From Octopus vulgaris (taxonomy: Eukaryota): DNA of 64,000 nucleotides. Numbering within the stretch: the first letter of the stretch is position 1; the number at the start of each line of letters is the position of its first letter. Both the position numbers and the translations under genes were made by a program. The notes beneath the pieces are model-generated. The model saw nothing but the letters and a program-made list of their open reading frames with translations, was not told where the DNA came from and made no database searches. Positions 6,775 through 48,467 of this stretch are shown here, piece after piece. The DNA lies in the NCBI GenBank assembly GCA_951406725.2, contig OX597830.1, forward strand, positions 33,666,001 through 33,730,000, given 5' to 3'.

Positions 6775-6816
6775 ACTAGACTAGTTTCATCTGCCAGTTG
6801 TTGACTCATCAGCAGT
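6775..6816 (-). ncRNA. Minimal type I hammerhead ribozyme, canonical core
   Basis: Minus strand: actg CTGATGA gtc-aacaactggca-gat GAAAC ta GTC^ tagt. Helix I is actg/tagt and helix III is the palindrome ACTAGT. Lies between short (TA)n runs. Confidence 0.7.
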
Positions 6817-7022
6817 GATTACTCCATATATATATATCATCATCATCATCATCGTTTAACGTCCGTTCTCCATGCTAGCATGGGTTGGACGGTTCAACTG
6901 GGGATCTGGGAAGCCAGAAGGCTGCACCAGGCTCCAGTCTTATTTGGCAATGTTTCTACAGCTGGATGCCCTTCCTAACGCCAACCACTCCATGAGTGTA
7001 TATATATATATATATATATATA

Positions 7023-7430
7023 GTGGCTGAGTGGTAAGTAGCTTGTTTACCAACAACATGGTTCCATGTTCAGTCCCATTGCATGGCACCTTGGGCAAGT
7101 GTCTTCTACTGTAGCCTCGGGTCAACCAAAGCTTTGTGAGTGGATATGGTAGACAGTAACTGAAAGGACCCCATCGTATATATGTATATATATATGTGTG
7201 TGTGTGTGTGCGTATTTGTTTGTGTGTCTGTGTTTGTCCCACCAACATCGCTTGACAACCAATGCTGGTGTGTTTGCATCACTGTAACTTGGTGGGTTGA
7301 AATAAGAGACCGATAGAATAAGTACTAAGCTTACAAAGAATAAGTCCTGGTGTTGATTTGCTCGACTAAGGACGGTGCTCCAGCATGGCCACAGTCAAAT
7401 GACTGAAGCAAGTAAAAGAGTCAAAGAGTA
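7023..7430 (+). mobile_element. SINE family A, near full length
   Basis: Head gtggctgagtggtaag...ggttccatgttcagtccc, internal (TA)/(TG) tract, tail aagtaaaagagtcaaagagtaa. Confidence 0.9.
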
Positions 7431-8304
7431 ATATATAAATTATAACTGTCATCTGCAAAGGAGTAAGACTTGGTAGCATGCACCATTTAATTAATTCATG
7501 ACTATTTATCTATGAAATTGACTTTCTCTTACCATATATAACTAGACAAGGCTGTAGAAATTTTCATTTCTTCATTCATGAACTGGGATTTCAGGTAGCA
7601 TTCAGACAACTTTAAAGCTATATTAATGTAATTCAGGTAAAAACTGTTAAAGGTACATTAACTTACACGAGGAGTGTGTGTGTTGACCTGTCTAAGAATC
7701 TAGATGTGTTTGGAGTTTAAGTACATGTGTGTGTGTGTATGTGTGTGTGTGTGTGTGTGTGTGTGTGTGTGTGTGTGTGTGTGTGTATGTGTGTGTGTGT
7801 TTGAAACTAGATACACATCATAAAGTGCCTCAAGTGTAGACAATTGTCTATGCATCAATTTATATATGTATCCAGTTAGATGAAGTAATTAAGGCAACAA
7901 TTAGATAATAGTGGAATATGATAATTTATAAGTTTAAATTGAATTTAATAATAATGAGAAACATTCTCGATTGTAATCTACAATTTATCTAATAAAATGA
8001 TTCGTTGTGTGTTAAATGTTAAAGCTATTGCATGTTAAAGATTACACAAAGCTAACTGGGCAAAACTTTTAAGGTTTATTGATGTATATGTGAGTGCATG
8101 TTTATGCATGTGTATGTGTGTGTTGTGTGAGTATATCTATCTATATATCTATCTATCTATCTATCTATCTATCTATCTATCTATCTATCTATCTATCTAT
8201 CTATCTATATATATATATATATAACAAAGTTGAGTTGTGGGGTATCGCACGAGTGGAATTATATACGAAAGAAGGTTTGAAAATGCAATTTAAAAGATGT
8301 TTAT

Positions 8305-8349
8305 TTACTTTACTGGTTTCACTCTTTGGAAAAAGATTGTCAAAAGTAA
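8305..8349 (-). ncRNA. Minimal hammerhead, U3-A8 variant core (left arm)
   Basis: ttactt TTGACAA tctttttccaaagagt GAAAC ca GTA^ aagtaa, with a 6-bp helix I. Confidence 0.6.
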
Positions 8350-8702
8350 CATGTGGAAGTTTGGTTGCGTTAATTATTGGTTGTTGCAAATTGCTACATT
8401 ACATATATATATATACAGTGTTTGGTAACAGGGACATGTTAAGGACATAAAAAAGTACAACAAGTTCCTTAAAATATTGGGCAAAAAAGATTACATAAAT
8501 GATCGTTCTCAAGGACATACTTAAGATAGTTTCCAGAAGGAATTGAGAACGATTATTTATGTAATCTTTTTGCCCAATATTTTAAGGTACTTGTTGTACT
8601 TTTATATGTCCTTAACATGTCCCTGTTACCAAAGACTGTATATATATATGTAATGTAGCAATTTGCAACAACCAATAATTAATGCAACCAAACTTCCACA
8701 TG

Positions 8703-8747
8703 TTACTTTTGACAATCTTTTTCCAAAGAGGGAAACCAGTAAAGTAA
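8703..8747 (+). ncRNA. Minimal hammerhead, U3-A8 variant core (right arm)
   Basis: ttactt TTGACAA tctttttccaaagagg GAAAC ca GTA^ aagtaa, with a 6-bp helix I. Confidence 0.6.
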
Positions 8748-9129
8748 ATAAACATATTTTAAATTGCATTTTCAAACCTTCTTTCGTATATATATATATA
8801 TATATATATATATATATATATATATATATATATATATATATATATATATATATATATATATATATATATATATATATATATATGGAGAGTTTACGAAAAA
8901 AACAAAAGACGAAGACAGGTGGTGTACAAAACAAACAGATGTATTAGTATAATGCTCAGGAATAGAAATATATATATGTATGTATGTATGCATACAGACA
9001 CACATCTGTATATGAGTGTAGGGTCAATAATATGTCAAAGACTTTTCCATTCTTCCCTAGCATCAAACTAATACAGCTGCTTGTAGTTCTTTTACCCATC
9101 TTCATCTTTTGTTTCCTGTAAATTAGAAC

Positions 9130-9450
9130 TATATATATATATAGAGAGAGAGAGAGTGTTTGTGTGTGTGTGAGAGAGAGAGAGAGAGAGAGTGTGTGTG
9201 TGAGAGAGAGAGAGTGTGTGTGTGAGAGAGAGAGAGTGTGTGTGTGAGAGAGAGAGTGTGTGTGAGAGAGGGAGAGAGAGAGAGAGAGAAGAGACAGACA
9301 GACAGACAGATAGATAGATAGATGGATAGATAGATAGATGGATGGATGGATAGATAGATAGATAGATAGATAGATAGATAGATAGATAGATAGATAGATA
9401 GATAGATAGACAGACAGACAGACAGATAGATAGATAGATAGATAGAGATA
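9130..9450. repeat. Compound (GA)n/(GT)n/(GATA)n microsatellite
   Basis: Direct inspection. Confidence 0.95.
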
Positions 9451-46088: not shown

Positions 46089-46570
46089 CATTGTTCTGTA
46101 AATGATAATTGCATGATTAAATAGACTTTATATGATGCATGATTGCAACATCTGAACAACATTTCCATAGACGTATGTCTGCGTTTTGTATAGAAAATTA
46201 AAACAAAAGTTATAGAAAGAAATAATCAAAAAGCAATATATTCTTAGTCAATAAAGCACACAGAACATTTGAATAGTACAGTCCTTAATTTTACCAATTC
46301 CAAGATTCATCGCACTTGGTCGAGCAATTTTCTCTAAGCAGAAACACAATGAGAATGTAATCTTTGTAATCGAGTTGAGAAGGTTGCCGATTGGAATATT
46401 AATAGCCAAATAGTGGCTAGAACAAAAGATGTATTTGGGAATATTCTACAGACTGATTTACTGATAATCGGAATGTTCTCAGAAGCAATCGTTTCTATAT
46501 GAGATAAAGTGCTTTCTTAATTTAGACCAATCCTGGCAGCATGCAATGCAATCATTGGTCACTTACATAT
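46089..46570 (+). pseudogene. Probable heavily decayed Penelope-like GIY-YIG endonuclease fragment
   Basis: CSVNDNCMIK*TLYDA resembles CPLNG.C....IVY.A and the segment at 19752. ECNLCNRVEK downstream matches C.LC..EK. Confidence 0.5.
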
Positions 46571-46986
46571 TATGAAATCATTCCCAGTTTGGTTAATATT
46601 CCTGGTAAATAAAAGACTAATATATACGCATTAATGTGTGTGTGTATGTGTATATATATATATGTGTATATATATATGTGTGTGTGTGTCTATATGTTTG
46701 CATGTGTGCATACATATATGCATGTTTGTGTGTATCTATCTATCTATTTATCTATCTATCTATCTATCTATCTATCTATCTATCTATCTATCTATCTATC
46801 TACCTATCTATCTATCTATATATATATATATATATATATATATATATATATATATATATATATATATATATATATATATATATATTTGTGTGTGCGTGTG
46901 TGTTTGTGTGAAAGTGAGTTAAATATGATGAGACAATAAAGCCAAGGGTGTGTGGAAATTTCAGGATATTTATAAAGAGAAAGTTA

Positions 46987-47034
46987 GTCTTACAGCTGTT
47001 TCTGGGATATTAGTGATATCCCTTCATCAGAGAC
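46987..47034 (-). ncRNA. Minimal type I hammerhead ribozyme, canonical core
   Basis: gtct CTGATGA a gggatat-cacta-atatccc a GAAAC agct GTA^ agac. Helix II is 7 bp and helix III is the palindrome ACAGCTGT. Confidence 0.8.
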
Positions 47035-47248
47035 GATATGAGATGGTTACATAGAGGGAAATAGTAGAGTTCAAAAGAAGGAGTTATCTTGGAAAATGGA
47101 AATAAGAAGTATAAAGGGAAATAAGAAAATAAAAGTAAAAATTGCTTTCAATCTCTCATTTCCCTTTCTATTTCTTACTGCCATCCTTTTCCAAAATAAC
47201 TCCTTATATTGAGCACTACTATTTCCCTCTATTTAACTCTCTCACATC

Positions 47249-47307
47249 GTTTCTGATCAAAGGATATCCCTAAAATATCCCTAAAATCCCAGAAACAGCT
47301 GTAAGAC
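47249..47307 (+). ncRNA. Degenerate mirror copy of the 46987 hammerhead (G8C)
   Basis: gttt CTGATCA aaggatat...atccc a GAAAC agct GTA^ agac, with a small duplication in helix II. Confidence 0.6.
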
Positions 47308-47917
47308 TAACTTTCTCTTTATAAATGTCCTGCAAATTCCACACAACCTTGGCTTTGTTGTCTCATTTTATTTAACATATACATGCTCATACCGAGAGTT
47401 TAACTACGTTCCTTCCATGGCACTTACATAGCCTTGCCTTTCACCTTGGGTCTTCTGGATATCAATACCACTCGTATATATATATATATATATATATATA
47501 TATATATATATATATATATATATATATAAAATTGTTCATGTTATTTCTATTTTTCTAACCTAGTATGGGTAAGATGAATATATTGAGGCTGGATGCCATT
47601 CTTGTTACTAACTGTTATCTGGGGTCCCTTATTTCATGTTTTCAAATGCTCAAAGTGAGTGAACAATTTGTTGATAGGAGTGACTACAATAGCTTTGCTT
47701 GACTTTCACCAAATCCCCTCACAAGGTCTTGGGCAGACACACATAGCTAGCAAGCTATATGTATATATATATATATATACGTTTAAATATTTGTTGTGCA
47801 AGATTTTTTATGTGAAGTCGTGTGTTGAAACAGATATTGTTATATTTCGGAATAAACTGGCAATATGACCATTCCGAAATATAACAATATATATATATAT
47901 ATATATATATGCATATA

Positions 47918-48253
47918 TGGGTACAGGACATCACCAACAGTAAACAACATGAAATACTAACACCACAAGGGAAACAAATGGAAAACAGGACAAATAACAT
48001 AAAGGACGACCCTTCATCAGTTGTCAGCTGTCTATCTATTCCTCATTTCGAGCATTGAATGATAATATGAGTCTTCGAAGACAGTTGCTCCCATAAGTAC
48101 CAAAATTAAATTTGGGATTTATGGATGATCAAAGTTGGGAAGAGTCATTCTTTATGTTACTTGTCCTGTTTTCCATTTATTTCTCTTGTTTGTGTATTGA
48201 ACTCATTTGTTTTTATATTTCGTGTTGTTTCCTGTTGGTGACATCCTGTACCT
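47918..48253. repeat. Element with interrupted terminal inverted repeats between (TA)n tracts
   Basis: gtacaggacatcaccaacagtaaacaacatgaaata pairs with tatttcgtgttgtttcctgttggtgacatcctgtac. aaatggaaaacaggacaaataacataaag pairs with ctttatgttacttgtcctgttttccattt. Confidence 0.75.
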
Positions 48254-48431
48254 ATATGCATATGTATATATATGTGTGTGTGTGTATGTGTAAGTATGTA
48301 TGTATATATATATATATATATATATATATATATATATATATGCGTGTGTGTGTGTACAGACGCCATGATAGATCGTTAGCCACTACACACATCTTTTTCT
48401 CTCCTTGTTTCTCTCCTTGTTTTCTGTGTCC

Positions 48432-48467
48432 CTTTCTGTAGAAGAGCGTAGGCTCAAAACGTAAAAG
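48432..48467 (+). ncRNA. Second copy of the U6-core hammerhead-like motif (also G12A)
   Basis: cttt CTGTAGA a gagc-gtag-gctc AAAAC GTA^ aaag. Same family as 42541-42724 and the fragment at 8884-8965. Confidence 0.5.

Follow-up and report, generated by a model that had tools for sequence, protein, structure and literature searches.

We analyzed a 64,000-nucleotide (nt) stretch of the Octopus vulgaris genome (contig OX597830.1, positions 33,666,001 to 33,730,000), referred to below as the window, in which a sequence-only reading had pointed out thirteen minimal hammerhead-ribozyme motifs. These motifs are very probably the hammerheads in the pseudo-long terminal repeat (pLTR) ends of protein-coding Penelope-like elements (PLEs), an assignment shown for families B, C, E, F, and H as defined below and likely for families A, D, G, and I. 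The majority of the copies are probably inert remains of insertions that broke off prematurely. The main observation is a known phenomenon in a further genome: minimal hammerheads in metazoan PLE pLTRs were described in 2014, with molluscs among the examples (Cervera and de la Pena, 2014; PMC4209133), and they are known from many animals. Measured against the literature, the novelty lies in families H and F alone, and Repbase or Dfam may list these families. Comparisons with published work refer to the parts of each source covered here.

The window has 36% G+C and is rich in microsatellites and short repeats; the genome measures 2.8 Gb. All 13 hammerhead strings were located at the coordinates and on the strands reported, and the roughly nine elements expected turned out to be nine genome-wide repeat families, A to I (Table 1). 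The canonical core claimed for four copies was confirmed at 6775, 13235, 22130, and 46987, while the core or the palindrome is altered in the other 9 of 13, and five copies (14238, 14466, 25250, 47249, and 48432) can be identified only via their family. A strict descriptor (exact core, palindromic helix III, helices of at least 3 pairs) matched the window 3 times, against means of 0.012 in 582 global and 0.033 in 582 local dinucleotide shuffles (maximum 1); with up to one mismatch there were 7 matches, against 0.52 and 0.60 (maximum 4). In 758 kb of flanks of the loci searched below, the descriptor matched 28 times, against 1.1 in shuffles (69 shuffles). That the motifs are chance matches in AT-rich, repeat-rich DNA might be argued from the five family-identified copies, which fail the descriptor at one mismatch (8 of 13 match, including 13235, which does so only if a long helix II is allowed), from a loose two-mismatch scan that returned 82 matches, and from the Rfam scan of the window, which gave 0 matches at the gathering score and, at the E-value threshold, microsatellite noise with no hammerhead among the best 150 of 271 matches. 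The descriptor was also composed with the motifs already known, and a simpler one without the extra base after A9 and without a loopless helix III found 1 motif; the non-circular support is therefore the restoration of core letters in the family consensuses. Between them the shuffles, this restoration, and the position of motifs directly behind PLE frames refute chance, to which we give practically no weight. The preference for (TA)n tracts was borne out as well, since (TA)5 or longer lies within 150 nt of 9 of 13 motifs, compared with 27% of window positions; both family F copies lie far from TA tracts, at 926 and 1,325 nt. The flanks of the searched loci, which were not chosen by motif, hold 58 copies of other families in about 717 kb. 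Motif density in the window (13 in 64 kb) is about twice that of these flanks, a baseline that is TA-rich and biased upward rather than a random genome sample.

Each family was sought genome-wide, and the candidate counts from this first look are lower bounds: at least 52 for A, 1,101 for B, 140 for C, 2,939 for D, 35 for E, 1,437 for F, 1,421 for G, 2,644 for H, and 2,260 for I. A consensus was built for each family from its 30 best genomic loci by plain sequence similarity. The core reads CUGANGA in A, C, D, E, F, G, and I, has the U3-A8 variant in B, and is CUGUAGA in H, so that 8 of 9 consensuses, H excepted, carry CUGANGA or U3-A8 in type I order with GAAA and NUH. Letters lost in window copies are restored: G8 of 14238, 25250, 35324, and 47249, G12 of 48432, and the palindrome of B. 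Among the top copies the exact descriptor is passed by 5/29 in A, 26/28 in B, 4/29 in C, 12/29 in D, 1/29 in E, 20/29 in F, 22/29 in G, 0/29 in H, and 17/29 in I, family E failing mainly through a weak helix II. The claim that helices I and II differ between families and still pair holds in the consensuses. For the three core-adjacent helix I pairs, 27 out of 27 are Watson-Crick and all four pair types occur, whereas permuted partners gave 8.6 pairs and reached 27 in 0 of 100,000 permutations, a score partly built in by the choice of motifs. Eight of the 9 consensuses form 3-12 pairs in helix II, which is weak in E; positions 10.1-11.1 are mismatched in B, E, G, and I; and helix II of C extends to 12 bp in an 82-nt arm. 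A self-complementary helix III was found exactly in 8 consensuses; in family A the palindrome is approximate, 11 nt long around a central base, and the motif parses better with a 4-bp helix III, a GUC loop, and a helix I of 6-7 bp than with ACUAGU. Overall the consensuses bear out minimal type I hammerheads of the PLE kind in many families. They resemble the published set in the type I order, the extra base after A9, the palindromic or absent loop 3, the U-rich upstream flank, the U3-A8 variant, and the occurrence of many families per genome, mostly as single copies, with opposite-strand pairs 100-700 bp apart (PMC4209133). They depart from it in the helix II arm of C, in the 10.1-11.1 mismatches, and in positions 4 and 6: the supplement rows compared here all have U4 and A6, whereas position 6 is U in H and position 4 is C in the majority of unselected D copies (13 of 18). 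A tenth hammerhead family, absent from the window, was met at about 1960-2471 (oriented) of locus L238, with U3-A8, an ACGCGU palindrome, a 6-bp helix I, and three copies including an inverted pair; at about 2570 (oriented) of locus L189 an extra motif with a CUGAAGA core and a 5-bp helix II stands beside a family I copy bearing U4C.

The link to PLEs comes from the frames upstream of the motifs. A reverse transcriptase (RT) whose C-terminal part is a GIY-YIG endonuclease (EN) lies upstream in several loci of E, F, and H and in one of C, and the EN in one of B. Of 29 loci of family E, 8 have a same-strand GIY-YIG frame (PF01541 above cut-off) whose end lies some 450-500 nt upstream, and in 2 the RT follows further upstream. 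In family C both RT and EN lie upstream on the same strand in one of 29 loci (L145), and in family B one of 28 loci (L093) has an EN frame between two inverted B copies, with a 3' untranslated region (3'UTR) that weakly matches the long B copies. For F and H the open reading frame (ORF) link was tested in reverse, with the nuclease as query and the downstream sequence then read: the motif follows the EN in 8 of 9 EN-picked H loci, and 10 of 11 EN-picked F loci run into a head and the hammerhead body. The CX2-5CxxC linker between RT and EN aligned in the B, E, and H elements and is absent from the piece of F aligned. These three families probably belong to the Neptune clade, assigned by this motif rather than by a tree with named references. 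Neptune PLEs have a C-terminal GIY-YIG and CX2-5CxxC and occur as tandem and inverted copies with tails and a microsatellite bias (Craig et al., 2021; PMC8557442); the octopus elements share the RT, the cysteine linker, and the C-terminal EN (B, E, H), the tandem and inverted copies, the tails, and the TA targeting. Copies have fixed 3' ends. Their 5' ends are scattered in a staggered fashion in A, B, C, E, G, and I; those of D and H are fixed. Inverted partners exist in A, B, E, F, G, H, and I, with none in C and D; they lie upstream in 12/28 loci of B, 13/29 of F, 8/29 of I, and 7/29 of A. The one-sided tail of 30-40 nt was never found on both partners (14/11/0 of 29 loci for F and 18/3/0 of 28 for B). 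A same-strand partner within 1.5 kb was found in 11 out of 260 loci. The window has no two intact same-strand copies of one family, and its B and I pairs are inverted repeats.

In a count that excludes 10 window loci, 4 duplicates, and 6 truncated E loci, variants shared by at least 4 copies occupy 1 of 94 columns in the core versus 34 of 346 in the flank (p=0.002). Because shared variants are scarcer in the core, the hammerhead shape was probably under selection in the source elements. Once inserted, copies seem to decay evenly: in ten EN-picked F copies, mismatches amount to 4/99 in the core versus 35/753 in the flank. Several observations weigh against the assignment to autonomous PLE ends. 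The sequence-only reading had proposed that every family be linked to an autonomous PLE, which was achieved for B, C, E, F, and H, the ORF links of B and C being one locus each, while no same-strand upstream RT or GIY-YIG was found within 1.5 kb for A, D, G, and I (29 loci each). Rare variants among the top copies are also lower in the core, 36/2,588 (0.014) versus 244/9,418 (0.026; p=2e-4), which may reflect a bias from picking by similarity or some selection on the copies, and the unbiased F sample is small. The H query began near the pile-up of 5' ends, which sharpens that pile-up, and transcript starts in the pLTR are ones that we infer. The swapped dimer is the predicted minimum-energy fold in no family, and of the 9 families 4 (B, C, G, and I) have a best fold in which the palindrome is predicted to pair between molecules.

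From the anatomy of the copies and published work on an anole PLE, the following course may be proposed. The GIY-YIG nuclease of the element would nick AT-rich DNA, mostly TA microsatellites, and the RT would begin at either of two positions a little downstream of the hammerhead, leaving the tail on one end only. It would then copy toward the 5' end and usually stop early, giving staggered 5' ends and inverted partners; in D, F, and H it likely reaches a transcript start inside the pLTR, yielding fixed copies of 200-250 nt, and in F this start is likely set by a tRNA-derived internal promoter. Two hammerheads in one tandem transcript could pair through the palindrome, and single inserted copies would decay and be unlikely to cut host RNA. 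The protein of the anole PLE, PAc, nicks AT-rich DNA, and two internal RT start sites define the tail; the anole hammerhead requires the protein for cleavage, can be dispensed with for insertion in vitro, and shows no ends in RNA-seq (PMC11167929).

The motifs had been read as belonging to non-autonomous, retrozyme-like elements that depend on PLEs. The PLE kind stands; independence is not supported: B, C, E, F, and H reach RT or GIY-YIG frames, most families have staggered 5' ends, and same-strand partners are rare. If the elements were non-LTR retrozymes in the strict sense, they would be ORF-less tandem repeats whose monomers are freed by the hammerhead, circularized, and reinserted. Such retrozymes are also short type I hammerhead repeats related to PLE pLTRs (PMC7229834), a recent preprint derives them from these pLTRs (bioRxiv 10.64898/2026.07.22.740005), and type I hammerheads in short high-copy repeats are what the octopus has. 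Retrozymes are, however, tandem units with mostly canonical motifs (PMC7229834; bioRxiv 10.64898/2026.07.22.740005), whereas the motifs here are minimal, have ORF-bearing parents, form no hammerhead tandem array among the 146 TRF rows of the window, and rarely have the same-strand partner noted above; we consider this origin improbable. It had further been suggested that the motifs cut or pair with host pre-mRNA, and they might in that way shape expression. Their high density in the window and in the locus flanks speaks for such a role, as do the four canonical copies and the long hairpins that inverted pairs would give in read-through RNA. A role of this kind is nevertheless hardly to be expected, because the copies are solo, inverted, or decayed: most window copies are altered in core or palindrome, no intact same-strand pair exists, unselected F copies decay at the flank rate, and no host exon was found in the 80 of 131 candidate frames scanned. 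A published monomer did not cleave and even dimers had low activity (PMC4209133), and the anole motif, as described above, required its protein and left no RNA-seq ends (PMC11167929).

A further alternative, compatible with autonomous PLE ends as the origin, is that the short D, F, and H copies propagate themselves from an internal promoter of their own and are mobilized in trans by PLE proteins, F being a tRNA-headed, PLE-driven short interspersed nuclear element (SINE); a non-autonomous life cycle of these fixed-length copies is possible, and we hold the alternative to be a serious one, if somewhat less probable than its opposite. In the majority of 30 loci the 5' end of D is fixed, some 78 nt upstream of the core, that of H lies within -10 to +12 of one point in 24 of 30 loci, the window copy included, and the F unit starts at -8 to +2 of its head in 20 of the 25 head-bearing loci, found with a query without the head, with box-like motifs kept. 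Set against this, the F and H units are the pLTRs of ORF-bearing elements, and the short F copies often retain a few PLE 3'UTR bases ahead of the head, so the short copies can arise in cis from autonomous transcripts.

Family F has the order stop codon, about 35 nt, tRNA-like head, (AAT)n, canonical hammerhead, 31-nt tail. Of 29 loci that were picked by the body alone, 25 possess the head. It contains A-box-like and B-box-like motifs, identified by eye against what we take to be the box consensus. ARAGORN at a relaxed score called 2 of 21 heads and did not call the consensus head. The head likely acts as the promoter of the unit, and an RNA polymerase III (Pol III) start there is the simplest reading. 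The EN of F was named by Atlas and by a profile of our own (E-value 1.5e-6), two F-element pieces went unrecognized by Pfam, and the element appears to be a PLE of the Poseidon type. A view of F as a free-standing SINE was revised once its ORF was found; the unit is the pLTR of ORF-bearing copies in 10 of 11 EN-picked loci. In contrast to Penelope/Poseidon PAc (PMC11167929), in F the head and (AAT)n follow about 35 nt behind the stop codon and the short copies start at the head. The nearest case is a SINE-like hammerhead repeat of Schistosoma with a Pol III-type promoter followed by the hammerhead (PMC6765202); those repeats are often tandem and ORF-less with active motifs, whereas F has dispersed copies with a minimal motif and also serves an ORF-bearing PLE as its pLTR. 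No report of a tRNA-headed pLTR was found among the papers listed in our literature searches. Loci L004 and L010 each have another element, about 500 nt long, within the (AAT)n linker of F.

Family H is a young element, of the Neptune type by its linker. Locus L300 has a pLTR, an open 1,200-codon RT-CxxC-EN frame (RT by PF00078 above cut-off), and another pLTR in a partial tandem arrangement, with identical motifs 4,478 nt apart. A search with the H nuclease gave 5,439 candidates; of these 150 were scored, and many of them have long open frames and are nearly identical to one another. Nuclease pairs about 4.5 kb apart stand at C1:149239568/149244070, C2:34641614/34646092, and C2:55914820/55919298; these are tandem full-length units of a young family. 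The consensus has U6, as do all 8 of the EN-linked copies, the two motifs of the intact element, and 18 of 19 unselected copies; in the unselected copies any of the four letters can stand at position 7. Genome-wide, the exact H-type motif with A6 occurs 158 times, over all four position-7 letters. Five such loci examined have at least 3 subfamily backgrounds, as expected of scattered back-mutations, and three of the five share an older background that could ancestrally have been A6. From three matches in 710 kb of flanks, the number of U6 motifs genome-wide may be put at thousands to tens of thousands, an estimate that is rough because the same flanks hold 1 A6 match. Unlike the Neptune clade as published (PMC8557442), H has a non-canonical core and yet retains the hammerhead fold in its various subfamilies. 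The natural variants A6C (phage Bcep176) and U4C (viroid) are rare and slower, and A6C is slow in Mg2+ and rescued by Mn2+ (PMC3088659; PMC7151607). They change the same core positions as H and D and are rare single cases, whereas A6U is fixed here in a lineage of thousands of copies. Among the papers listed in our literature searches there was no report of a natural A6U hammerhead; by its title, Lunse et al. (2017) covers numerous PLE hammerhead variants and may hold A6U or U4C. In four presumed-RNA runs on the intact H element the pLTR was covered far deeper than the 5' half of the frame, in contigs that show no ends, strand, or level, and no splice-like joint at the H pLTR was seen among 15 of the 22 joints listed; this pattern speaks neither for nor against expression. 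In D and H (14166-14272 and 48359-48467) a long run of pyrimidines extends up to the hammerhead, AG stands in or just behind the core, and GT lies upstream; by analogy with Drosophila virilis Penelope this could be a short 5'UTR intron overlapping the ribozyme.

Families H and F may tentatively be taken for two undescribed designs, which we think could be real without quite expecting it: a young, abundant Neptune lineage with a selected fold and fixed A6U (its sister with U4C), either a protein-rescued or metal-tuned ribozyme or a non-catalytic fold for recognition by the RT; and a Poseidon-type pLTR whose tRNA-derived Pol III promoter spawns SINE-like copies. Why PLEs keep hammerheads is an open question, as the motifs in print show poor cleavage and insertion in vitro did not depend on it. 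Nature has in this respect set up an experiment in H, intact and recently amplified with a fixed change at an activity-costing position, its position 7 and helices showing the variation expected of a selected fold. Through F one can envisage concretely how a tRNA-headed SINE could arise from a PLE and, if true, a SINE being born inside its autonomous partner. Among the papers listed in our literature searches, none dealt with hammerhead ribozymes in octopus; a 2026 octopus repeat annotation describes recently active Penelope families, with ribozymes unmentioned in the parts covered (PMC13282606).

Table 1. Hammerhead-bearing elements and related fragments in the window (window coordinates; motifs are given by start and strand).
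Family	Motif	Element	Strand	Description	Hammerhead
A	6775-	6677..6824	-	Old element	6765-6818; canonical core, 4-bp helix III; helices I and II weakened
B	8305-	8224..8546	-	pLTR end with ~40-nt tail	8305-8349; U3-A8; palindrome damaged (ACCAGU vs family ACCGGU)
B	8703+	8543..8792	+	Inverted partner without tail; arms 98% complementary to 8224..8546	8703-8747
H		8884..8968	-	3' fragment without hammerhead, absent from the sequence-only reading	
C	13235+	13020..13492	+	3' end	13235-13324; canonical core, long helix II, 8-nt palindrome
D	14238+	14166..14372	+	Fixed-length ~210-nt copy ending in (TA)30	14238-14272; decayed (G8A, palindrome and helix II changes)
E	14466+	14432..14674	+	5'-truncated PLE end; its 243 nt are 99.6% identical to the end of a copy that bears GIY-YIG and lies on a different contig between other flanks	14466-14510; U4C
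F	22130-	22076..22230	-	pLTR body, no head	22130-22175; canonical
F	25250-	25196..25437	-	Unit with tRNA-like head (25364-25437) and (AAT)n	25250-25292; decayed (G8U, 3-nt deletion)
F		25437..25540	+	Inverted partial copy with 31-nt tail	
G	35324-	35145..35444	-	Element beside (TA)n	35323-35365; G8A; consensus canonical
H	42639-	42551..42719	-	pLTR copy between TA tracts	42640-42675; CUGUUGA (A6U)
I	46987-	46928..47142	-	Copy	46987-47034; canonical, 7-bp helix II, ACAGCUGU
I	47249+	47142..47475	+	Inverted partner, longer 3' end; end at TA tract read from sequence	47249-47307; decayed (G8C, helix II duplication)
H	48432+	48359..48557	+	Fixed-length ~200-nt pLTR copy ending in (TA)n	48432-48467; A6U core and private G12A

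The D and E copies at 14166-14674 stand back to back via one (TA)30, and PLE ends gather in the same microsatellites. A repeat at 47900-48260 with internal inverted arms and a CUGAUGA word gave no hammerhead parse at up to 3 mismatches. A candidate for a fourteenth motif near 47950-48140 also failed to parse with 3 mismatches allowed. No PLE protein was detected inside the window by profile or tblastn; a frame at 18796-19131 (+) presumably resembles, by eye, the C-terminal part of a PLE-type RT, without Pfam or tblastn support. The scanned frames contain only a C2H2 repeat and a mariner fragment. The latter is a mariner-type transposase fragment (PF01359) at 1365-1559 (-). The former is a C2H2 zinc-finger frame at 394-786 (-), which recurs in locus L035 and is therefore probably part of a repeat. 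A SINE-like repeat at 55103-55683 consists of four head-to-tail units of 145 nt that are 93% alike.

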